Part shown: piece by piece, positions 6,626 through 21,207 of the stretch | Layout: every line of letters starts with the position of its first letter | Position numbering within the stretch: position 1 is the first letter of the stretch | IMG/VR virus record: IMGVR_UViG_2563366941_000005 | Origin: a virus | Lineage: Duplodnaviria; Heunggongvirae; Uroviricota; Caudoviricetes | Strand: one strand, 5' to 3' | Length of the DNA: 34,670 nucleotides | Position numbers and translations under genes: made by a program | Notes under the pieces: generated by a model | The model's database searches: none | What the model saw: only the letters and a program-made list of their open reading frames with translations | Told to the model about the DNA's origin: nothing

Positions 6626-6988
6626 TTAATGACCTGCTGCGCGTAGTTTTCCGTCAGGTTCACCGGCAAGAGTCAGTAATTGTCCCTGGTCTTCCTGCAG
6701 AATAGTCAGGCGACCACCGCGATTGACATACATCGGCGTTTCGGTGGTGTCTTCTTCGGAAATTTTCCCGCGGTTAGTCGGGCGAACATATGAGAGTTTG
6801 TGTTTGATTTTCACACGGTTCTCATCAAATGGTTCGATTTCCAGGTTGAGTGAGACCTTACCTTTGGTTTTCGTGTTCATCACACCGGAAGCGACTTCAC
6901 TGAGAACTGCGCCGATTTTGGTTTCAAATACGCCGCCGTCCAGCTCCCCGATAAATGCCTGCACATCAGTACTGCGTTCGCTAGCCAT
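6626..6988 (-). CDS. YfdP-like small phage protein (about 120 aa)
   Basis: Start reassigned to the internal ATG at 6988 (MASERSTDVQ) with GAGGAG SD; the upstream part of the tracked ORF is compositionally non-protein-like. Confidence 0.5.
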   Translation of the reverse strand: MASERSTDVQAFIGELDGGVFETKIGAVLSEVASGVMNTKTKGKVSLNLEIEPFDENRVKIKHKLSYVRPTNRGKISEEDTTETPMYVNRGGRLTILQEDQGQLLTLAGEPDGKLRAAGH

Positions 6989-7133
6989 TTTGCTGCTCCT
7001 CATCATATCGACCCTGCAAGGTCGGTTAGTTTCTCCACAAAACAGAGAAGAACACCTGCGGTGGCAGCCGCCCGGATGGATTGGGTTATGAGCCCGTCGT
7101 CCGGTGATGCTCTTCTCTGTTTTGTAAAAAGAG

Positions 7134-7170
7134 CGGTACCAGCCGGAAGTAAGTGTACAAACTGGTACCG
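7134..7170 (-). terminator. Candidate leader hairpin / intrinsic terminator in the early-left leader
   Basis: 9-bp inverted repeat CGGTACCAG / CTGGTACCG with a 19-nt loop; on the minus strand it is followed by CTCTTTTTAC. Confidence 0.3.
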
Positions 7171-7658
7171 CCAAAGCAGTGGCTGTTGTGGTGCCGGTGC
7201 TGATCTCCGGCTTGCGGTTATTTCAGACTCTCACGGGCGTTTAATTGCCCCGCCGAACAGCTCTTTTCCGCAATAGCTGCAATGTCTTTCGCGCATCAGC
7301 CTGCGCATTCACCACAACGCTGAGAGCATTGCCGGTGTCCGAATCGAACGGACCTTTTCCCTGCCCAACCCTCCCATCTGAATGGGACTGTCTGGAATTG
7401 AACCAGCACTTATGCCTTGCTCGTCAATGCTCTCATCGTTGCGTCCTGGTCTCTTCCCAGGCGTCAAACCGAATCGCCACGCTGGTTAGGCGTCTTATCA
7501 GCATCATCATTGACTTGCACATTCCGGCTACCTGGTTTGTTTGCCCGAGCAAGGAGTGGATTGTCCCCTTTAACGTCCCCAGACCGCTAACGACGCATGT
7601 GCCATACGCCGTGTTACAACCAAATTTTGTTTAATCTTGCCTGTGGCATGTTTCTTTT

Positions 7659-7692
7659 AGATACATTATGTATCTCAAGGGTACATTGTCAA
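7659..7692 (-). promoter_or_regulatory. Candidate pL promoter with overlapping OL operator
   Basis: Minus strand -35 TTGACA (7692-7687), 16-bp spacer, -10 CATAAT (7670-7665); perfect 17-bp palindrome AGATACATTATGTATCT (7659-7675) and operator-like ATGTATC-N5-GGTACAT (7668-7686) overlap it. Confidence 0.55.
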
Positions 7693-7693
7693 G

Positions 7694-7719
7694 TATAAAA
7701 AAACCTGCCGAAGCAGGTT
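7694..7719 (-). terminator. Rho-independent terminator downstream of cI
   Basis: Minus-strand stem AACCTGC, loop TTCG, stem GCAGGTT, then a 7-U tract, immediately 3-prime of the cI stop at 7731. Confidence 0.75.
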
Positions 7720-7730
7720 ATAAATATTGA

Positions 7731-8405
7731 TTAGGCCTTTATTTTGTATCTTCTTGGTTTTCCTGAGAAAATTACTGTACCAATTATAGAGCAATTACCG
7801 TTAATCTTAATGTAAGGCTCAGGCCAGTTTGGGTTTAATGCTTTGAGATAACGCTGTGTTCCATCTTCTATCAATCGCTTGAAGGTGGTTTCGCCTGTAT
7901 CGTGCATCAATGCAATAACGTCGTCACCGTGGCAGGCAGGGACTTCGGGATCAACAAAAATCATGTCTCCCGGGCGGTACTCATCAATCATTGAATCACC
8001 AATCACCCGCAAGATATAAGTCATTTCGCCACAGGGTACAGGGCAGGGATAAGTTTCTGCTGTGCTCAAATCAACCTCAGAATAGCCAACTTCTTTCCAT
8101 GCTCCGGCCTGTACCCATGATATGACAGGGACTAACGTTATTTGTTTGTTAGTAATTGAAACATCAGGTTTTTTTGTGATGTTTGTTGTCTGGTGTTCTT
8201 GATCAAGCCATCCGACAGGCAGGTCGAAACATTTTTCGATGTGCCGTGCCATGCTGTCACCGATATTTTTAGTAGCACCATCTCCCATAAACCTGCTGGT
8301 CTGGGTTGGCTCGCGATCAATCATGGTGGCAAAGGAAGAATTCCCGCCAACACCATCTCTCAGTTTTCTGGCGTTAGACCGCCGGATGTCATGGACTGTT
8401 TTCAT
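7731..8405 (-). CDS. cI: CI-like prophage repressor (N-terminal HTH, C-terminal S24 LexA-like peptidase domain)
   Basis: 224-aa ORF; C-terminal VIGDSM...GD..FVD...K signature of S24 autopeptidase; divergent from the cro-like gene; no SD upstream, consistent with a leaderless transcript. Confidence 0.85.
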   Translation of the reverse strand: MKTVHDIRRSNARKLRDGVGGNSSFATMIDREPTQTSRFMGDGATKNIGDSMARHIEKCFDLPVGWLDQEHQTTNITKKPDVSITNKQITLVPVISWVQAGAWKEVGYSEVDLSTAETYPCPVPCGEMTYILRVIGDSMIDEYRPGDMIFVDPEVPACHGDDVIALMHDTGETTFKRLIEDGTQRYLKALNPNWPEPYIKINGNCSIIGTVIFSGKPRRYKIKA

Positions 8406-8421
8406 AACGAAATTAAAACCT

Positions 8422-8440
8422 TTGTACCGATAGGGTACAA
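8422..8440. promoter_or_regulatory. Operator, perfect 7-5-7 inverted repeat TTGTACC-gatag-GGTACAA
   Basis: Perfect palindrome in the cI/cro intergenic region; the same half-site family recurs at 8472-8490 and 7668-7686. Confidence 0.7.
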
Positions 8441-8727: not shown

Positions 8728-9297
8728 ATGAGGCTAACCGTGGGTAAGCATCACTGGAAAGTAGAAAAACAGCCTGAGTGGTACGTGAAAGCTGTCAGAA
8801 AAACTATCGCGGCGTTGCCGGGGGGTTACGCTGAAGCTGCTGAGTGGCTGGATGTAACAGAGAACGCATTATTCAACCGCCTTCGTGCAGATGGCGATCA
8901 GATTTTCCCGCTGGGATGGGCAATGGTTTTACAGCGTGCGGCTGGCACTCACTACATTGCGGATGCTGTCGCACAGTCTGCTGGTGGGGTGTTCGTATCG
9001 CTTCCTGAAATTGAGGCAGTAGAGAACGCCGATATAAACCAGCGCCTGCTGGAAGTCATTGAACAGATCGGCAGTTATTCCAGACAGATTCGTTCAGCAA
9101 TCGAAGACGGTGTAGTGGAACCGCATGAGAAGACAGCAATTAACGACGAACTGTATCTTTCAATTTCGAAGCTCCAGGAGCATGCAGCACTGGTCTACAA
9201 AATCTTCTGCGCTCCAGAAAAGAGTAACGCCCGCGAGTGTGCAGCTCCGGGCGTCGTGGCGTCGATTGCTTCTGGTTGTGGAGAAACTAACGCATGA
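8728..9297 (+). CDS. CII-like / YdaT-like regulatory protein
   Basis: 189-aa ORF directly after cro; N-terminal segment AEWLDVTENALFNRLRADGDQIFPLGWAMVL resembles the CII HTH region; start may instead be GTG at 8740. Confidence 0.55.
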   Translation: MRLTVGKHHWKVEKQPEWYVKAVRKTIAALPGGYAEAAEWLDVTENALFNRLRADGDQIFPLGWAMVLQRAAGTHYIADAVAQSAGGVFVSLPEIEAVENADINQRLLEVIEQIGSYSRQIRSAIEDGVVEPHEKTAINDELYLSISKLQEHAALVYKIFCAPEKSNARECAAPGVVASIASGCGETNA

Positions 9298-9622
9298 ATA
9301 GTTTAACGGCAAATAACCGTTTGTCGCAACAGCTGGTGGTCAGCGTCGCTGAACACCTGTTGTTACGGCATGAATGCAGATTACCAAATCACCTGGCTGT
9401 AAGTAACCACAGAGAACTTTACCTGACTGTGGGGGGCGAGTTGTGCAGGAACTTAACCGCTGGTTTCGTGACGGAAGAGGGCTTTATGTCCATGTTATTC
9501 GTTGGGAGCCAGAAACACAGCGCGTTATCTATCTTCGCAAAGACTACCCGCATGAGTGCTTTAGTCCTTTGTGGAAATTCAGGCGTGATTTTGTTGAGTG
9601 TGAAGGACCACCAGCATATTGA
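9294..9622 (+). pseudogene. Possible frameshifted small gene (frame 0 N-terminus joined to a protein-like frame +2 segment at a G6 tract)
   Basis: ATGA overlap with the preceding stop; G GGG GGC heptamer at 9431-9437; downstream frame encodes VVQELNRWFRDGRGLYVHVIRWEPETQRVIYLRKDYPHECFSPLWKFRRDFVECEGPPAY up to a stop at 9620-9622. Confidence 0.3.
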
Positions 9623-9893
9623 TTCTGCAATTCCGGGACGTTACACTGTTCAGGCACCTTATAAAGCGGGTGCCGGGATTGGCGTCCTGAAATTCGCACA
9701 TGCGCATAACCGCGCTTCAGCGGTTTTTTTGCGCACGTTTCCTCACATCCAAATTATGGTGGGGCGTGCAGGGGCATCGAAAGATGCGCCGGGGTCATGT
9801 GCGACCGGTTACGCCAACCCTGTACGTCTCACCACCTCTGTGATTGGCGTCCCATGTGGTGAGTTTTCAAAATTCGCACATGAGGATGTCACT

Positions 9894-10439
9894 ATGGCAA
9901 CCACCCCTACCCAAACTCACCCTAAAATTGATGTTATCCATGGGAAGGCTGTTACCTCTTCTTTGGCCGTTGCCGAATATTTCTGCAAGCAGCACAAAAA
10001 CGTTATTCAAAAAATCCAGACGCTTGAGTGCTCTGTTGAATTCACTGAGCTGAATTTTCAGCCCAGTGATTACACCGATTGCACAGGCCGCAAACTCCCT
10101 TGTTACCAAATCACCCGCGACGGTTTTGCGTTTCTTGCCATGGGCTTCACGGGGAAACGTGCTGCCCGGTTCAAAGAGGCATACATCAATGCCTTTAACC
10201 AGATGGAGAAACAGCTTTCAAATCCCTCTGTACTGAGCGACGTTGCACATAACGCCAGCGTTCTCTATTCCTACATTTCATCAATTCATCAGGTCTGGCT
10301 GCAGCAGCTTTATCCCATGTTGGCAAAAGCCGAATCCCCGCTGGCTGTAAGTCTGTATGACCGCATCAACGACGCGGCGCTACTGGCCAGTCTCATAAAT
10401 TTGTCGCTGAACCCTTCAGAGGTAAGGGGGCGCAAATGA
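9894..10439 (+). CDS. Rha-family phage regulatory protein
   Basis: Rha-like core VTSSLAVAEYFCKQHKNVIQKIQTL ... ITRDGFAFLAMGFTGKRAARFKEAYINAFNQME; internal ATG at 9894 has GAGGA SD; the upstream 600 bp of the tracked 381-aa ORF is not Rha-like. Confidence 0.75.
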   Translation: MATTPTQTHPKIDVIHGKAVTSSLAVAEYFCKQHKNVIQKIQTLECSVEFTELNFQPSDYTDCTGRKLPCYQITRDGFAFLAMGFTGKRAARFKEAYINAFNQMEKQLSNPSVLSDVAHNASVLYSYISSIHQVWLQQLYPMLAKAESPLAVSLYDRINDAALLASLINLSLNPSEVRGRK

Positions 10440-14313: not shown

Positions 14314-15309
14314 GTGACTGTGAGAGCACTACTGACCCCTGAAATTGCCCCGCGTATGGGGATCGTATTGTTCAGGCCAGGTTCAGAGCTGATGCCCCTG
14401 TTTATGCAGGGGCGTGTCCTGCTGGAGCCTGAGCCGGAGCGTTATTCATCTTTCGCCAGTGGTGCCGTTCCGGCGGCATCACAACCGCTGGCGGATGATC
14501 CTGCCGTTCGGGCCGTGTTCCGCCATGAGGCAGTGATCCGTCGTGCTGGTGGCGTGGAATGTCTTGAAAGCTGGTTACTTCGTGAAAAAGGCTGCCAGTG
14601 GCCTCATTCCGGATGGCACAGCGAGAACATGACCACAATGCGACACGCTCCGGGTGCAATCCGTCTGTGCTGGCACTGCGATAACCAGCTGCGCGATCAG
14701 TTCACGGAACGGCTGGAATCAATGGCAACGGATAACTGTGCCCGCTGGGTGTTGTCTGTTGTGCGTCGGGATCTCGGTTTTGATGACAGTCACGTTGTGA
14801 CAATGCCGGAACTGTGCTGGTGGCTGATTCGTAATGACCTGGCGGATGCCTTACCGGAAAGTGCAGCCCGTAAGGCACTGAGATTACCGAAGCCTGTTGT
14901 GCCGTCTGTCACCCGGGAAAGTGACCTTGTGCCTTCGGTTCCTGCCACCAGCATCATCCAGGATAAAGCGAAAAAGGTGCTGGCGCTGAAAGTGGATCCG
15001 GAGTCGCCGGAGTCTTTTATGTTACGCCCCAAACGTCGCCGCTGGGTTAATGAAAAGTACACGCGCTGGGTTAAGACGCAGCCGTGTGCATGTTGTGGAA
15101 AGCCTGCTGATGATCCCCACCACCTGATAGGCCACGGTCAGGGGGGAATGGGTACAAAAGCGCATGACCTCTTCGTGCTGCCTTTGTGCAGAAAGCATCA
15201 CGACGAGCTGCATGCGGATACCGTGGCATTTGAAGAGAAGTATGGCTCCCAACTGGAGCTGATATTTCGTTTTATCGATCGTGCGCTGGCAATAGGCGTG
15301 CTGGCCTGA
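14314..15309 (+). CDS. DUF968-like phage protein with C-terminal HNH-like zinc-binding motif
   Basis: 331-aa ORF; C-terminal CACCGK...HHLIGHGQGG...CRKHHDELH; start codon uncertain (GTG 14314 or 14320). Confidence 0.6.
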   Translation: MTVRALLTPEIAPRMGIVLFRPGSELMPLFMQGRVLLEPEPERYSSFASGAVPAASQPLADDPAVRAVFRHEAVIRRAGGVECLESWLLREKGCQWPHSGWHSENMTTMRHAPGAIRLCWHCDNQLRDQFTERLESMATDNCARWVLSVVRRDLGFDDSHVVTMPELCWWLIRNDLADALPESAARKALRLPKPVVPSVTRESDLVPSVPATSIIQDKAKKVLALKVDPESPESFMLRPKRRRWVNEKYTRWVKTQPCACCGKPADDPHHLIGHGQGGMGTKAHDLFVLPLCRKHHDELHADTVAFEEKYGSQLELIFRFIDRALAIGVLA

Positions 15310-15326
15310 TTTTGTGGAGAAAGTTG

Positions 15327-15698
15327 ATGCGTGATATTCAAATGGTTCTTGAACGTTGGGGGGCATGGGTGGCAAATAATCACGAGGATGTGGAATGGTC
15401 ATCTGTTGCTGCAGGTTTTAAGGGATTAATTCCTTCGAAAGTAAAATCCCGCCCGCAATGTAGCGATGACGATGGCCTGATCATTAGCTCTGCGATGACA
15501 GTTCTTAAGAAAAAGGAACCGTATCAATACGAATTACTGGAAATGTATTATGTGTATGGGGTTACATTACGGGTGTTGGGGGTAAAACTGGGGATATCAC
15601 TTAATCAGGTTGTTATCAGACTGCAGAAAGCTGAAGGGTTTATTGACGGTTGTCTGGCAATGTTGGGGGTATCTTTAGAAATTGATTGTTACATATAG
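15327..15698 (+). CDS. Q: Late-gene antiterminator Q
   Basis: MRDIQMVLERWGAWV N-terminus typical of the phage antitermination Q family; GGAG SD; immediately upstream of the late region. Confidence 0.7.
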   Translation: MRDIQMVLERWGAWVANNHEDVEWSSVAAGFKGLIPSKVKSRPQCSDDDGLIISSAMTVLKKKEPYQYELLEMYYVYGVTLRVLGVKLGISLNQVVIRLQKAEGFIDGCLAMLGVSLEIDCYI

Positions 15699-15817
15699 TA
15701 ATAAATTCAATCAAAGTAAATAATCATATTTTATTATAACCTCCTGATGATACCTGTTCATTGGTGATGCTGCCAACTTACTGATTTAGTGTATGATGGT
15801 GTTTTTGAGGTGCTCCA

Positions 15818-16093
15818 GTGGCTTCTGTTTCTATCAGCTGTCCCTCCTGTTCAGCTACTGACGGGGTGGTGCGTAACGGCAAAAGCACCGCCGGACATCA
15901 GCGCTATCTCTGCTCTCACTGCCGTAAAACATGGCAACTGCAGTTCACTTACACCGCTTCTCAACCCGGTACGCACCAGAAAATCATTGATATGGCCATG
16001 AATGGCGTTGGATGCCGGGCAACAGCCCGCATTATGGGCGTTGGCCTCAACACGATTTTACGTCACTTAAAAAACTCAGGCCGCAGTCGGTAA
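15818..16093 (+). CDS. insA: IS1 InsA
   Basis: 91-aa [40 protein letters not shown]..., recognised as IS1 InsA. Confidence 0.95.
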
Positions 16094-16515
16094 CCTCGCG
16101 CATACAGCCGGGCAGTGACGTCATCGTCTGCGCGGAAATGGACGAACAGTGGGGCTATGTCGGGGCTAAATCGCGCCAGCGCTGGCTGTTTTACGCGTAT
16201 GACAGGCTCCGGAAGACGGTTGTTGCGCACGTATTCGGTGAACGCACTATGGCGACGCTGGGGCGTCTTATGAGCCTGCTGTCACCCTTTGACGTGGTGA
16301 TATGGATGACGGATGGCTGGCCGCTGTATGAATCCCGCCTGAAGGGAAAGCTGCACGTAATCAGCAAGCGATATACGCAGCGAATTGAGCGGCATAACCT
16401 GAATCTGAGGCAGCACCTGGCACGGCTGGGACGGAAGTCGCTGTCGTTCTCAAAATCGGTGGAGCTGCATGACAAAGTCATCGGGCATTATCTGAACATA
16501 AAACACTATCAATAA
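16012..16515 (+). CDS. insB: IS1 InsB reading frame (transposase made as InsAB-prime by -1 frameshift)
   Basis: 167-aa frame; A6C slippery motif TTAAAAAACTC at about 16066-16076 in the insA/insB overlap. Confidence 0.9.
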
Positions 16516-16551
16516 GTTGGAGTCATTACCCCTGTTCATTGGGAGGTTATT

Positions 16552-17169
16552 ATGGATAAAAATGTAGAGCATGTATTAGTTGATGCAATTGAAAATAAGC
16601 AATCTTTAACAGTCGTTTACTTAGGAGGGAGCCAGCCCGGAACATTAAGGAATATTTCTCCGATTAGTATAAATGGGGATAAATTGCGGGCAAGATGCCA
16701 TAGTTCTGGAGCAGTAAAGGTTTTCAATCTTGGGAAAATACAGTTACCCAGTGACTCCTGCGCGGTATCTATGCACTATGGAGATTTAGAAGTTAAAGCT
16801 TATGAGACGATGCAGAGCGTAAATGACAACTTTCATGCCCTTTATCCTGAAGGACGATGGGGTGTTGATTTTAATGAGCATCGCTTTGCTTTATTTGATT
16901 TTTTTAAAAACGGGAAACGAAAAAAAACGGCATTTATGGCAATTGAGTTCAGGGAAAGAGATGAAGAGAAAATAATAACAGGTGTAACAATTGATATTGG
17001 TATATCTGGAACAGTGATTTCTGAGAAGTCCCGAATCCCAAAAAGACGACCATGGGTAGTGGTTGGTCCCGAACACGGAGAATACAGTACTTATTCAACT
17101 TTGGACAAGGCTGCTACAGCGTTTTTTGAGAGGCTTTCGTTGATAGCATCCGGCCTGGAAGATAATTGA
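16552..17169 (+). CDS. Hypothetical moron protein (205 aa), unknown function
   Basis: AT-rich ORF with GGGAGG SD directly abutting the IS1 right end; followed by its own intrinsic terminator; no recognisable motif. Confidence 0.6.
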   Translation: MDKNVEHVLVDAIENKQSLTVVYLGGSQPGTLRNISPISINGDKLRARCHSSGAVKVFNLGKIQLPSDSCAVSMHYGDLEVKAYETMQSVNDNFHALYPEGRWGVDFNEHRFALFDFFKNGKRKKTAFMAIEFRERDEEKIITGVTIDIGISGTVISEKSRIPKRRPWVVVGPEHGEYSTYSTLDKAATAFFERLSLIASGLEDN

Positions 17170-17298
17170 TTTTATGTTTGGTATTCAGAGTTCGCCGTGC
17201 TTAAGAAAGTCAAGATTCTAAAAATACTGAATGAGCTACTTGTGTTATAACAAAAATGCTATTAGTGTGTTAAGAGTGGTTACTTCGCCACACAACTT

Positions 17299-17325
17299 AA
17301 ACCCGCCACTGAGCGGGTTTTTTGT
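17299..17325 (+). terminator. Rho-independent terminator after the 205-aa ORF
   Basis: Stem ACCCGC, loop CACTGA, stem GCGGGT, then TTTTTT. Confidence 0.7.
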
Positions 17326-17447
17326 ACCTGTAAACTTGGTGCAGTACAGTAAACACGCTGGTGGTCGTGAATACTGGCTTTTTATCTTGCTGGCTTTTTA
17401 GACAAGAGTTATTGGTATGTCACGTTAACCGGAAAGGGTAAAAAGAC

Positions 17448-17645
17448 ATGCTGAAACAGCAGGATATGACAGAAACCGCCAGAGTTGTGTTTGATGAATT
17501 AAGCGTTACCGAACCGGCGACAGTCGGGGAGATTGCGCAGAATACTTACCTTTCACGCGAACGCTGCCAGTTAATACTGACCCAGCTTGTTATGGCGGGT
17601 CTGGCAGACTATCAGTGCGGTTGTTACAGACGCCTTCAGTCCTGA
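17448..17645 (+). CDS. Small winged-helix DNA-binding protein (65 aa)
   Basis: HTH-like segment TVGEIAQNTYLSRERCQLILTQLVMAGL; AT-rich context upstream of the AraC-like gene. Confidence 0.45.
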   Translation: MLKQQDMTETARVVFDELSVTEPATVGEIAQNTYLSRERCQLILTQLVMAGLADYQCGCYRRLQS

Positions 17646-17779
17646 AGGCTTTTTATTTGTGGTGAATGGGCGGCTGGTGGGGGGGCGACACCTGTCAGTC
17701 CTTTGCTTATGTGTTGATGATAATTTACCTTTTGGGGCTATAATTGAGCTAACCAATTGCTAATGAAAGTAAAATTATA

Positions 17780-18493
17780 ATGGCTGTTGTCTGTTCAGTT
17801 ATCATGGTTTGCTCCCCAATTAATATTTTTCTTGAAAAGGATACGTTGTCACTTAAGCCAGGCTCAGTTGTTCTGGCCACCAAATGCATCAGGGAGCTTT
17901 TCCTTATGCATTATGGCAAAGTTAAAATTGTCGATATAAGCGAATCCGTCGTAAGTCAATATCTGGAAAGTCAGCATAAGCTGACGAGGACTCGTCTGAC
18001 TGACATTCCGCTTTACCTGTTGCTGGAACCCAACAATCCTGCGTTGGCTGCGGCTTTAATTACCAGCCAGGGATTTTCCGGAGAGGCCACGGATATGTTT
18101 CTTATGATGGCCTGCCTGTCTCTGTTTGAAACAGATGAACGGATGTCATTGTTTTTAAGTGGATGTTTATCCAGCATAAGTGCCAAAGTCAGGGCGATAA
18201 TTCAGACAGATATATCAGCAAGCTGGACGCTTGGTGCGATTGCTCTACAGTTGCATATGAGTGAGAGTTTGTTAAAGACAAAACTGAAAAATGAAGGGGG
18301 CATGTTCAGTCGCTTGTTGCTGGAAGAGCGGATGCGTGTTGCTGTAAATATGTTATGTTCCCGGCATGGATATGGACAGGCTATAGCAGAAAAATGCGGT
18401 TATTCAAGCAGGTCCTACTTTATTTCTGTATTTCACCGCTATTATGGCTTCCCGCCAGACAGATATGTATCCAGGCAAGGGCTTGATTATTGA
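17780..18493 (+). CDS. AraC-family transcriptional regulator
   Basis: C-terminal AraC-type HTH (WTLGAIALQLHMSESLLKTKLK ... GYSSRSYFISVFHRYYGFPP); low GC; start codon uncertain. Confidence 0.8.
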   Translation: MAVVCSVIMVCSPINIFLEKDTLSLKPGSVVLATKCIRELFLMHYGKVKIVDISESVVSQYLESQHKLTRTRLTDIPLYLLLEPNNPALAAALITSQGFSGEATDMFLMMACLSLFETDERMSLFLSGCLSSISAKVRAIIQTDISASWTLGAIALQLHMSESLLKTKLKNEGGMFSRLLLEERMRVAVNMLCSRHGYGQAIAEKCGYSSRSYFISVFHRYYGFPPDRYVSRQGLDY

Positions 18494-18521
18494 TTTTCAT
18501 CTGATTATTATTTTTTGGCTC

Positions 18522-18597
18522 GGCCCTTTAGCTCAGTGGTGAGAGCGAGCGACTCATAATCGCCAGGTCGCTGGTTCAAATCCAGCAAGGGCCACCA
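18522..18597 (+). tRNA. tRNA with CAU anticodon (Ile2-lysidine type, ileX/ileZ-like; could be scored as Met)
   Basis: 76-nt cloverleaf: acceptor GGCCCTT/AAGGGCC, D arm GCTC/GAGC, anticodon loop CTCATAA, T loop TTCAAAT, encoded CCA. Confidence 0.85.
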
Positions 18598-18604
18598 TCA
18601 CATA

Positions 18605-18681
18605 CCGCCATTAGCTCATCAGGAAAGAGCGCCAGCCTTCGAAGCTGGTTGCGCGGAGTTCGGGTCCCCGAAGGCGGTTCA
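18605..18681 (+). tRNA. tRNA-Arg-like (anticodon UCG), noncanonical
   Basis: D arm GCTC/GAGC, anticodon stem CCAGC/GCTGG with loop CTTCGAA, T loop TTCGGGT; one acceptor and one T-stem mismatch; 3-prime end TCA instead of CCA. Confidence 0.55.
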
Positions 18682-18694
18682 TTATCTGTATCCT

Positions 18695-18771
18695 GCGTTG
18701 TTAGCTCAGCCGGACAGAGCAATTGCCTTCTAAGCAATCGGTCACTGGTTCGAATACAGTAGAACGCGCCA
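18695..18771 (+). tRNA. tRNA-Arg (anticodon UCU)
   Basis: Acceptor GCGTTGT, D arm GCTC/GAGC, anticodon stem ATTGC/GCAAT with loop CTTCTAA, T loop TTCGAAT, encoded CCA; one acceptor mismatch and a G/A at the T-stem closing pair. Confidence 0.65.
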
Positions 18772-18786
18772 CACTTATTTTCCCTG

Positions 18787-18810
18787 GCTCGCTTTTGCGG
18801 GCTTTTTTTT
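18787..18810 (+). terminator. Rho-independent terminator after the tRNA cluster
   Basis: Stem GCTCGC, loop TTTT, stem GCGGGC (one G-U pair), then T8. Confidence 0.7.
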
Positions 18811-19245
18811 AAATGTCTCACAATTCAGGCGGTTGACTGTTGTCTGGTTTGCGGGGAGTTTGTTAAAAGAAACTGGCATGGTGAATCCCCCTGTGCGGAG
18901 GGGCAATCAGCGAGTAGGTATATGGGATAATCGCGGATTCAGGTGCTGGTACTGAATTCACCGGGAGGCACCCGGCACCATGCAATGGCACATAGTGCCA
19001 CTCTCCAGCCCCTCTCCGGAGGGGCTTTCTTGTGGGCAAAAAAAAGCCCGAGTGGGTTCGGGCAACAGCATGAGATATACATTTTTATAATCGAATGGAT
19101 TTTAACCAGAATTCATAAGGCTGCGCAACTGCGCGGTCTTTTTCGAATTGCGGGCTGTCGTCTCTCTTCTGCCATTGTCCTGTAACTTCCGGACTTCAGC
19201 CCGCTCCTTATTTTACTCACAATATTATCCCGGCCGGGAGGATTC

Positions 19246-21207
19246 ATGGCATTTAAACACTATGACGTGGTCAGGGCGGCATCGCCGTCAGACCTTGCGA
19301 AACGACTGACACAAAAACTGAAGGAGGGGTGGCAGCCATTTGGCAGTCCGGTGGCCATCACGCCTTATACCCTGATGCAGGCCATTGCGGCGGAAGGTGA
19401 TGTCACCACACCTGTGGTGGTGAAGCCGTCGGATGGAGAAGGCGCAGTTATCAGCACTACCAGCAACCCGGAGTATTACTTTGTTGTTGCCCTGGCCGGG
19501 CAGTCAAACGGTATGGCGTATGGTGAAGGGCTTCCGCTGCCGGAGACATATGACCGTCCGGACCCGCGTATTAAACAGCTGGCGCGTCGCAGCACTGTCA
19601 CGCCGGGTGGTGCGTCCTGTAACTACAATGACATTATTCCTGCGGACCACTGCCTGCATGATGTTCAGGATTTGAGTAAGTTTTCACACCCGAAAGCCAG
19701 CGCAGCTCAGTATGGATGCGTGGGGCAGGGATTACATATCGCGAAGAAATTGTTGTCGTTTATTCCGGCGAATGCCGGTATTCTTCTGGTTCCGTGCTGC
19801 CGTGGTGGTTCTGCATTTTTGGCGGGCGATGAAGGTACCTTCAGCGAATCCACCGGCGCAAGCGAGACCTCGGCACGCTGGGGTGTAGATAAGCCACTGT
19901 ACAAGGACCTGCTTACCCGTACTCAGGCCGCACTGAAGGCCAACCCTAAAAATATTCTGCTTGCAGTGGTCTGGATGCAGGGCGAGTTTGATTTGAAACA
20001 GGGTGCATACGCCACTCAGCCGGGGCTGTTTGATTCCATGGTGGAAAAATATCGTTCTGACCTGTCGGAATTCGGAGGTCAGTGTCTCGGGGGCTCTCCG
20101 TCATCAGTTCCCTGGATTTGTGGCGACACGACCTACTACTGGAAGCAGACTTATTCTTCGCAATACGATGCGGTGTATGGTGCATATAAGACGAAATCCG
20201 CAAAAAAAATCTTCTTTGTGCCGTTTATGACGGATGAAAACGGGCGAAATGTGGGTACCAACGAGCCGTCAGAAGATCCGGATGTTGCGGATATTGGGTA
20301 TTACGGAGCCGGTGGTCGAACGGACGCCAAAACCTGGACGACGGCTGACCGTAAAACGCATTTTGGATCATGGGCACGTCGTGGGATTATTTCCGACCGT
20401 CTGGCAACGGCGATTCTTGTGCATGCCGGGAGAACCGCTGAATTCATTACCGGAAAACAGCCTGATACGGTGAAGCCCACCGGACCTTCCGGTGAAGGTA
20501 CGGAGAGAGAGCCGGAAGGTCCGGTCAGTAACCGAACCCTGATGAGTCTGCTGGCGTCCGGCGAAGACCTGGCATCACAGGGCTGGCGCTATTATCACAA
20601 ACCGGCGAGCGGAGACAATGTTAACAAAAACATTGCTGAAGCGGTGGTCAGTGATGCGGGGGCTACGGGAGGTAAGGCCCTGCAACTGAATAAACCGGAA
20701 AACCACATCTGGTTTCTGGAGCATGATGCAGCCGGGCAGGGGGCAGAGTTGCTGAAGAAAGGAGGACGTGTGAGCGTACGGTTTAAGTTGCCGGGTTCAC
20801 TGGTGCCGAATCAGTTTGCCCTGGGCATTTACTGGCAGTTGTCGTCCCTGCCGGAGGGAGTGACGCTGGCAGAGGAAGGCAACGACATGCTGATGTCCTT
20901 CTTCCTGCAGACGGATGCGACGAACCTGAACGCGATGCACCACAAGAAGCCGAATGCGAAGCTGGATACGTTCGGGGTCTTTGATAACGGATGGCACACA
21001 CTGGCTTTTGAGTTTGCCGGAAACAACAGCATTCAGGTGACGCCGGTACTGGATGAGAAACGGGGGACGCCGTTCACACTGGTGAAATCTCCGGCATCAG
21101 GGGCGGCGGACAAACTGCAACTGACAGGCATATCAAAGGCGGCGACATATACGCTGCTGATTGACAGTGTGAAGGTGGAAGTGAACAACGCGGATGCCGC
21201 GGCATGA
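19246..21207 (+). CDS. Prophage sialate O-acetylesterase (NanS-p-like; SGNH/SASA hydrolase)
   Basis: 653-aa ORF; GQSN catalytic motif (VALAGQSNGMAYGEG); GGGAGG SD; located between the tRNAs and the lysis genes as in Stx-phage-like prophages. Confidence 0.75.
   Translation: MAFKHYDVVRAASPSDLAKRLTQKLKEGWQPFGSPVAITPYTLMQAIAAEGDVTTPVVVKPSDGEGAVISTTSNPEYYFVVALAGQSNGMAYGEGLPLPETYDRPDPRIKQLARRSTVTPGGASCNYNDIIPADHCLHDVQDLSKFSHPKASAAQYGCVGQGLHIAKKLLSFIPANAGILLVPCCRGGSAFLAGDEGTFSESTGASETSARWGVDKPLYKDLLTRTQAALKANPKNILLAVVWMQGEFDLKQGAYATQPGLFDSMVEKYRSDLSEFGGQCLGGSPSSVPWICGDTTYYWKQTYSSQYDAVYGAYKTKSAKKIFFVPFMTDENGRNVGTNEPSEDPDVADIGYYGAGGRTDAKTWTTADRKTHFGSWARRGIISDRLATAILVHAGRTAEFITGKQPDTVKPTGPSGEGTEREPEGPVSNRTLMSLLASGEDLASQGWRYYHKPASGDNVNKNIAEAVVSDAGATGGKALQLNKPENHIWFLEHDAAGQGAELLKKGGRVSVRFKLPGSLVPNQFALGIYWQLSSLPEGVTLAEEGNDMLMSFFLQTDATNLNAMHHKKPNAKLDTFGVFDNGWHTLAFEFAGNNSIQVTPVLDEKRGTPFTLVKSPASGAADKLQLTGISKAATYTLLIDSVKVEVNNADAAA

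Follow-up and report, generated by a model that had tools for sequence, protein, structure and literature searches.

The locus considered here raises the question whether an AraC-like gene carried by a prophage serves the phage cycle or acts on the bacterial host. It is located in IMG/VR virus record IMGVR_UViG_2563366941_000005 (Caudoviricetes), the whole stretch of which, 34,670 nucleotides, is called the window below; on account of its Q, lysis, and terminase genes, the window is a lambdoid Escherichia coli prophage. A first-pass annotation had proposed two open reading frames (ORFs) at this place, one for a small winged-helix protein and one for an AraC-family regulator, as AT-rich cargo in a slot between Q and the tRNA genes, and had suggested that the latter might be a host-directed regulator of the PatE or Psr kind. 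The two ORFs lie exactly where they had been proposed, on the same strand, at 17448-17645 (65 amino acids) and 17780-18493 (237 amino acids), and their position between Q (15312-15698) and three tRNA genes (18522-18771) was borne out. All features of the window mentioned below between 14314 and 21207 are on the plus strand unless the minus strand is named. The results indicate that the larger ORF, called psr here, is probably an allele of psrB, a regulator gene of E. coli acid resistance, and that the smaller one is a conserved prophage gene in its own right.

Identity of the AraC-like gene

The 237-amino-acid protein is identical to RefSeq WP_000301785.1, of which the gene is labeled in RefSeq only as "helix-turn-helix domain-containing protein." It shares 234 of 237 residues (98.7%, full length) with WP_000301797.1 of O-island 57 (OI-57) of E. 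coli O157:H7 strain EDL933, and the nucleotide identity is 99.2%. The latter protein is encoded at 1905274-1905987 by the sole AraC gene in the 80 kb of resequenced EDL933 that were read from the integrase next to ompW onward, and it was also found, in the same context, in the O157:H7 strains TW14359 and Z1767. None of the three substitutions between the window protein and the OI-57 copy (A103V, H196Y, and I202V) falls within the predicted recognition helices of Psr, residues 161-172 and 211-223.

The genes psrB (z2104, O-island 57) and psrA (z1789, O-island 50) have been described as AraC-like prophage genes that are 90% identical (PMC10877973; PMC8565820). According to these reviews, the promoters of hdeA and gadE are bound by PsrB, which makes the cells more acid resistant and helps them to pass the mouse stomach, and both PsrA and PsrB reduce type III secretion via GadE/YhiF. 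Six further Psr homologues have been reported from enterohemorrhagic E. coli (EHEC), enteropathogenic E. coli, and meningitis-associated strains (PMC10877973; PMC8565820). We consider it likely that the 237-amino-acid gene is an allele of psrB. The proposal of a host-directed regulator resembling PatE or Psr is upheld by the identity with the OI-57 copy and by the hdeA and gadE targets given in the reviews, PatE being only a distant relative (37%). This regulator family has already been described, and for the AraC gene the result is a rediscovery that adds nothing new.

Several observations weigh against equating the window gene with psrB and against transferring the published circuit to it. 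The equation of the OI-57 AraC gene with z2104, and hence with PsrB, rests on the two reviews cited above and on gene order, not on a sequence record bearing the name; the HReVAP supplement, consulted as a check on z2104, lists the ORF and holds no primer sequences to match. Two of the three substitutions, H196Y and I202V, are close to the second helix-turn-helix. The putative psr promoter described below is a consensus match only, and the scan that gave it returned 8 promoter-like sites in the region where 6.7 are expected by chance. No Psr homologue was found by tblastn for psrA in OI-50, either in CP-933N of the resequenced EDL933 or in Sakai Sp6; therefore, the published locus assignments are not fully reproducible here. 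The closest host genomes, finally, are those of human isolates of 4.8-5.3 Mb that probably do not carry the enterocyte effacement locus (LEE), and the type III secretion arm may not apply to them.

The O157 genomes hold two copies of the psr family, and searches with two other alleles led back to the PsrB copy. It was further noted that the potC/potB-integrated prophage (Sp6 or CP-933N), which corresponds to O-island 50, carries espK, espN, and nleL.

Domain architecture and relatives of Psr

The assignment to the AraC family is confirmed by Pfam, in which both HTH_AraC (E value 2.4e-13, 50.3 bits vs a cutoff of 26.6, in two stretches) and HTH_18 (39.8 bits vs a cutoff of 33.6) score above threshold. 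The DNA-binding domain of GadX (PDB 3mkl) aligns to residues 134-233 of Psr with an E value of 7e-19. The best NCBIfam models are those of YdeO (residues 1-229) and, next, GadX, and the scores stay below the equivalog cutoffs of these models (108.5 bits vs 348 for YdeO and 87 vs 500 for GadX). By these comparisons, Psr belongs to the same subgroup as YdeO and GadX and is not an orthologue of either.

Full-length BLASTP identities of Psr are 35% to GadW, 31% to YdeO, and 29% to AppY; GadX is 41% identical, in the C-terminal half only. Full-length BLASTP also gave 37% identity to ECs_0287 of Sakai prophage Sp1, the candidate for PatE, and an identity of 39% was found with a gene between Q and holin in lambda-like phages such as 1H12. 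Psr, GadW, YdeO, AppY, and the PatE candidate have an N-terminal M..VCSVI motif in common, and their alignments begin at residue 1. Since this motif is shared, the 237-amino-acid start is favored over the 195-amino-acid form of many database entries. By homology, the N-terminus of Psr is a companion domain, for dimerization or sensing, of the GadW/YdeO/AppY type, and the 237-amino-acid protein is classified by sequence as a full-length AraC/XylS member of the GadW/YdeO/AppY/PatE subgroup. The homology searches did not return phage-cycle regulators as best homologues, the outcome that the first-pass annotation had named as contrary to a host-directed role.

Distribution and selection of psr

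The psr family is represented in 13% of the complete E. coli genomes (726 of 5426), with a median of two copies, and 1323 of the 1324 places are chromosomal. At 99% or more nucleotide identity to the window gene, psr was found in 595 of the 5426 genomes, among them O104:H4, O157:H7, O111, O145, O103, and the meningitis strain S88. The latter has a 99.2% identical Psr copy in the same cassette. The exact window protein is encoded by 1000 or more contigs of a public protein collection, O104:H4 again included. All of the approximately 20 psr contexts that were read are Q-to-lysis regions of prophages, and the family is essentially limited to E. coli and Shigella. The ratio of nonsynonymous to synonymous substitution rates (dN/dS) between psr alleles is 0.21-0.29.

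The window allele differs in 20 residues from that of the Stx2k phage phiSTEC1575-Stx2k. Five of these differences (T167K, N171D, G174L, M175R, and R178N) are grouped within the first predicted recognition helix or immediately behind it; Psr alleles may vary in DNA specificity.

Composition, expression signals, and proposed mode of action

With a GC content of 43.8%, psr is AT-rich, as had been claimed for both genes, whereas the small ORF (50.5%) is average: the window as a whole has 50.4% GC and 22 backbone ORFs have 52.7 +/- 3.9%. The AT-richness of psr is modest, at about 2 standard deviations below the backbone. The 1046-bp interval from 17448 to 18493 has 44.7% GC, which puts it in the lowest 12% of intervals of the same size.

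A promoter-like site, ATGATA and TATAAT separated by 16 nt, was found by a consensus scan at 17717-17744 (10 of 12 matches), 36 nt upstream of the psr start codon. In all 10 aligned Psr alleles a TATAAT or TATACT -10 box is located at a constant distance from the ATG, and it has also been kept in alleles of 58-63% identity with different upstream contexts. These sequence features suggest that the site is active as a promoter. The psr cassette begins near 17705 and includes this promoter-like site. At its other end, the first tRNA gene starts 28 nt past the psr stop codon in the window and approximately 28 nt past it in all alleles of at least 77% identity. The late promoter pR' could not be identified with confidence; the stretch from Q to the small ORF varies with Q type and cargo.

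In a lysogen, psr would most likely be transcribed from its own sigma-70 promoter just upstream, to which read-through from the Q-dependent late promoter would be added in the lytic cycle. Judged by homology, Psr combines the N-terminal companion domain with a C-terminal double helix-turn-helix. By analogy with PsrB, the window protein would bind the host gadE and hdeA promoters, by which the glutamate-dependent acid-resistance island would be upregulated and acid survival increased. In a host with LEE, type III secretion would also be lowered via GadE/YhiF, and where the host lacks LEE, the acid-resistance arm alone would be expected to operate. From the PsrB analogy, we infer that the window allele acts like PsrB in its host. 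Indirect support for promoter binding is given by the recognition helices, which are identical to those of the O157 copy, and by the target locus, the hdeA-hdeD-gadE region, which 5411 of the 5426 complete genomes of E. coli possess.

The 65-amino-acid winged-helix protein

The small ORF at 17448-17645 is a real protein-coding gene, with a dN/dS of 0.055-0.29 against nine homologues; synonymous sites are near saturation in the comparisons with Salmonella and Klebsiella. The earlier call of a winged-helix protein agrees with the predicted fold and finds no above-threshold match in Pfam, where TrmB (E value 0.003, 17.8 bits vs 25.6) and MarR_2 (14.1 bits vs 27) both stay below their cutoffs; there was no match in NCBIfam. 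An AlphaFold2 model made with 32 homologues has a predicted local distance difference test score (pLDDT) of 82.6 and shows a helix, a short strand, two helices, and a beta-hairpin wing, which is the canonical winged-helix order. The best PDB matches of this model are winged-helix domains of IclR and MarR regulators and of O-methyltransferases, at template modeling scores of 0.7-0.8 and E values of only 1.5e-3 or higher. At NCBI, the protein is labeled a TrmB/MarR-type regulator. What the model supports is a generic winged-helix fold, predicted for a stand-alone protein, and not membership of the TrmB or MarR families.

The ORF belongs to PHROG 331, a family with no assigned function (E value 6e-37, residues 1-64), and its relatives form 295 clusters, which come from E. 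coli, Shigella, Salmonella, Klebsiella, Citrobacter, and Buttiauxella. When remote homologues were sought among 1.84 billion representatives, only 61 clusters were returned, all of them close relatives. In the loci examined, the small ORF is always downstream of Q and the gene that follows it varies. Cargo status, which the first-pass annotation had given to both genes, holds for psr and not for the small ORF, a conserved fixture in many prophages: the 65-amino-acid ORF is a conserved backbone gene and a separate unit, not part of the Psr cargo. An analogy with SafA, encoded by a 65-amino-acid gene ahead of ydeO in K-12, was considered and rejected, SafA being a membrane protein without sequence similarity to the small ORF.

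Architecture of the slot behind Q

A comparison of about forty loci (designated by L numbers where they have to be told apart) revealed three exchange points after Q, grouped around one conserved block. The block extends approximately from 17268 to 17705 and comprises a terminator, the 65-amino-acid ORF, a hairpin with a T-run, and a second stem-loop; its sequence is conserved between E. coli and genera as far as Klebsiella. The same block is preceded by Q genes of four unrelated families, namely PF06530, PF06323, PF03589, and DUF1133. The first cargo, between Q and the block, is a 205-amino-acid WYL-like ORF in the window and elsewhere a TfpB-like gene, ORF6N, an Rce1-like gene, or a pair of genes in reverse orientation. 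The second cargo is psr, a gene for a 350-amino-acid N6_N4 DNA methyltransferase, or TerB, with tRNA genes thereafter. The methyltransferase gene takes this place in the second prophage of OI-57 as well as in prophages of Salmonella and Klebsiella, and in the loci of the 58-63% identical Psr alleles it comes first with psr behind it. The third cargo is nanS-p in the window, stx2 in phiSTEC1575-Stx2k (L003), L024, and related contigs, and subAB in another set. Psr is thus often accompanied in its slot by AB5 toxin genes. The small ORF and psr are neighbors by this cassette arrangement rather than as a dedicated pair, because the psr cassette starts at approximately 17705 with its own conserved -10 box and has its own link to the tRNA genes.

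The tandem OI-57 prophages of EDL933 offer a within-genome case of cargo exchange: both have the 65-amino-acid ORF after a DUF1133-type Q, and the next gene is that of the methyltransferase in one (L039, 21682-23088) and psrB in the other (L007, 38942-39988). In E. coli contigs L028-L032, which represent lambdoid prophages, a 92% identical psr allele is located directly upstream of subA and subB (approximately 6968-8430); these genes were recognized by matches to PDB 2iy9 (subA, E value 2.7e-158) and 4bwg (subB, E value 3e-48).

Three RNA elements accompany the small ORF. The left edge of the block is marked by an intrinsic terminator at 17299-17326, approximately 120 nt upstream of the 65-amino-acid ORF (-13.8 kcal/mol, z-score -2.85), of which the stem and the T-run are retained in other genera with altered stem and loop bases. 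A terminator scan detected a terminator-like hairpin with a T-run at 17632-17659, over the stop codon of the 65-amino-acid ORF and between this ORF and psr (-10.5 kcal/mol, z-score -2.3). Its position is kept across genera, with some compensatory changes, and its T-run is short in some relatives. The second stem-loop, at 17661-17707, contains the block AATGGGCGGCTGGTGGG...CACC..CCAGCC, which has been kept from E. coli to Klebsiella. In the window its fold is no better than that of shuffled sequences (z-score -0.66). The stem-loop is found at the same position in L012-L023, L033, L034, and L039. In the methyltransferase-bearing versions it has a perfect 12-bp stem, GGCTGGTGGGTG ... CACCCACCAGCC, and in the psr-bearing versions it is partly degraded. 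Covariation in the two stem-loops after the small ORF is weak, with compensatory changes in 2 of 28 pairs. A known RNA in the small ORF or its flanks was sought in Rfam, which gave nothing above threshold; a match to STnc130 (28 bits vs 55, E value 0.23) was dismissed as chance.

The PHROG 331 protein, the upstream terminator, and the two stem-loops might together form a conserved control module that, in lambdoid prophages of enterobacteria, heads the late ("moron") region and gates the cargo downstream, an idea that we regard as a long shot. With equally low probability, the gated cargo would be psr, the DNA methyltransferase gene, the tRNA genes, stx2, or subAB. Such a module could work through DNA binding by a controller-type protein, or it could set the balance of termination and read-through. 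If it exists, the expression of toxins and regulators in many prophages would be under one unrecognized common switch.

Alternative explanations

Three other readings of psr and its small neighbor have to be weighed against that of a PsrB allele acting on the host. The two genes could be a co-transcribed regulatory module in which the small protein is a partner, anti-activator, or controller of Psr. They are adjacent and co-oriented in every examined Psr allele of at least 74% identity, behind four Q types, and the short T-run after the intervening hairpin in some relatives means that read-through would be possible. However, the small ORF is distributed far more widely than Psr (the 295 clusters in six genera vs a family limited to E. 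coli and Shigella), the gene behind it is in most cases that of the methyltransferase or TerB, and in the 58-63% alleles the methyltransferase gene separates it from psr. PatE-type and phage 1H12-type homologues have no 65-amino-acid neighbor, a hairpin with a T-run and a separate conserved -10 box intervene between the two genes, and they are unlike in GC content; a dedicated pair is accordingly unlikely. Even less probable, to a degree that we would be surprised to see it confirmed, is that Psr is a phage-cycle regulator with targets within the prophage, such as lysis, late, or immunity genes. This would suit the location of psr in the late region, where co-transcription with late genes is expected after induction, the lack of an assigned function for PHROG 1450, to which Psr belongs, and the view that prophage transcription factors of K-12 mostly control phage genes (PMC10057817). 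Against it, prophages that are otherwise similar carry unrelated cargo where psr would be, so that the gene is dispensable for the phage cycle; it is present in no more than 13% of the complete E. coli genomes; for a near-identical protein, binding to the hdeA and gadE promoters of the host has been reported; and the nearest chromosomal relatives of Psr are the GAD-island regulators GadW, GadX, and YdeO.

There is a small chance, slightly better than that of the two-gene module, that psr is a silent or neutral passenger in this apparently LEE-negative host, one that travels with the tRNA module, is kept repressed in the lysogen, and confers no measurable phenotype. The tight linkage of psr to the tRNA genes, 28 nt in all close alleles, makes hitchhiking possible, and moderately AT-rich DNA such as that of psr would be of the kind that H-NS silences. 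AraC-type regulators have been described as acting on AT-rich, H-NS-repressed genes (PMC10877973), and in O157 the deletion of psrB alone had little effect on secretion (PMC10877973; PMC8565820). A passenger is at odds, however, with an intact ORF that is identical in lineages as distant as O104:H4 and human isolates and is under purifying selection, with the increase in acid survival and mouse-stomach passage brought about by induced PsrB (PMC10877973), and with a target locus that practically all E. coli possess. A psrB allele directed at host acid resistance is the reading that we prefer.

The value of the result lies mainly in correct annotation, the "helix-turn-helix" entry of RefSeq being a probable PsrB allele. 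The occurrence of psr in human isolates other than EHEC suggests that a prophage-driven boost of acid resistance is not confined to EHEC, and the cassette map places psr in an exchangeable slot shared with stx2 and subAB phages.

Prophage setting and neighboring features

Of the first 24 kb of the window, 97% is covered at 100% identity by a prophage of the human isolate 19AR1724; the uncovered part includes a copy of IS1. The left border of the slot is formed by the Q antiterminator gene at 15312-15698 (Phage_antitermQ, PF06530, E value 1.5e-47), which is preceded by a DUF968 gene at 14314-15309. IS1 (15763-16530) is complete with its InsA and InsB ORFs and is flanked by a 10-bp target duplication, CCTGTTCATT, at 15753-15762 and 16531-16540. 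Its junctions were defined by comparison with the 19AR1724 prophage, which is otherwise 100% identical and has no IS1. The element is inserted 54 nt past the Q stop codon and 12 nt ahead of the ATG of the 205-amino-acid ORF (16552-17169), and it may separate this ORF from upstream signals or disturb late transcription.

Neither IS1 nor the 205-amino-acid ORF, both between Q and the small ORF, had been included in the first-pass account of the slot. The latter ORF has a weak N-terminal WYL-like match in Pfam (E value 0.0085, below threshold), belongs to phrog_8498, for which no function is assigned, and has homologues in just nine clusters; a sequence search gave no relative of solved structure. 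It is the most AT-rich gene of the slot (39.6% GC, 32% at third codon positions). The cassette from 16531 to 18900 is complete in only 27 of the 5426 complete E. coli genomes. The 205-amino-acid ORF is the rarer cargo, located between Q and the conserved block, and is less understood than the AraC gene. A role in a defense system was considered and dropped, as PADLOC gave only sub-threshold WYL and SWIM matches.

Downstream of psr, the three tRNA genes (18522-18771) were identified with ARAGORN and Rfam as tRNA-Met(CAU), tRNA-Arg(UCG), and tRNA-Arg(UCU). The first of these (18522-18597) is read as Met (CAU) by ARAGORN, and its RefSeq label differs between genomes, being either tRNA-Ile or tRNA-Met. 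It is probably of the ileZ type known from the tRNA arrays of Stx phages, in which lysidine modification leads to reading as Ile. Directly 3' of the tRNA genes, Rfam detects the small RNA (sRNA) STnc100 at 18847-19037 (137.8 bits), followed by an AsxR-type anti-sRNA on the minus strand at 19041-19093, with 63 bits, exactly the gathering score; a match to AgvB is sub-threshold. AsxR has been described from Stx2 phages, and the match found here is in a prophage without stx. The gene for a 653-amino-acid esterase of the SASA/NanS-p type at 19246-21207 is followed by the lysis genes. The window ends on the right in head genes, before the region where effector loci are normally located, and no toxin genes are carried in it. 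Psr regulators are expected to share their prophage with type III effector loci and Pch regulators. No effectors were seen in the psr-bearing Stx2k and subAB phages. A PerC-family ORF (yfdN-like), at most a candidate Pch, is present in the same prophage as psr.

In the left part of the window, Rfam places isrK (62 bits) and C4 antisense RNA (75 bits) side by side at 9654-9839, within the first part of a 381-amino-acid ORF at 9294-10439. By sequence, the pair points to a putative c4-antirepressor immunity module of the P1/P7 type in this lambdoid prophage.

Comparison with known systems

The closest known system is PsrB of EDL933 OI-57 (CP-933O), with which the window shares the order Q, 65-amino-acid ORF, AraC gene, tRNA genes, and, later, a NanS-p-type esterase gene. 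The two loci differ in Q, which is of the PF06530 family in the window and of the DUF1133 type in O157, in the 205-amino-acid ORF and IS1 that the window has in addition between Q and the small ORF, and in the number of tRNA genes, which is three in the window and two in O157. The window host is apparently not an EHEC strain, so that the circuit as published may lack its LEE arm here. As to PsrA (z1789), alleles that are approximately 90-92% identical to the window protein exist, and the reviews give 90% identity between PsrA and PsrB (PMC10877973; PMC8565820).

PatE (z0321, O-island 8) resembles Psr in subfamily, length class, and N-terminal motif, and its activation of gadE and hdeAB makes use of the hdeA promoter segment on which PsrB also acts (PMC10877973). 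Its candidate ECs_0287, for which the mapping to PatE is inferred, lies at the right end of Sp1, outside a Q-tRNA slot and without a 65-amino-acid neighbor; at 37% identity and with a different position in the prophage, Psr is not a PatE. AppY, from the DLP12 prophage of K-12, GadW, GadX, and YdeO are activators in the GAD acid-resistance network (PMC10877973; PMC10057817), and their loci differ from that of psr. The Q-to-lysis "moron" slot of Stx and other lambdoid prophages, finally, is the same kind of place: psr alleles are found directly upstream of tRNA genes and stx2, subAB, or, in the window, nanS-p. What sets the window apart within this group is the lack of toxin genes and the set of genes behind its tRNAs, namely those for STnc100, the AsxR-like sRNA, and the NanS-p-type esterase.

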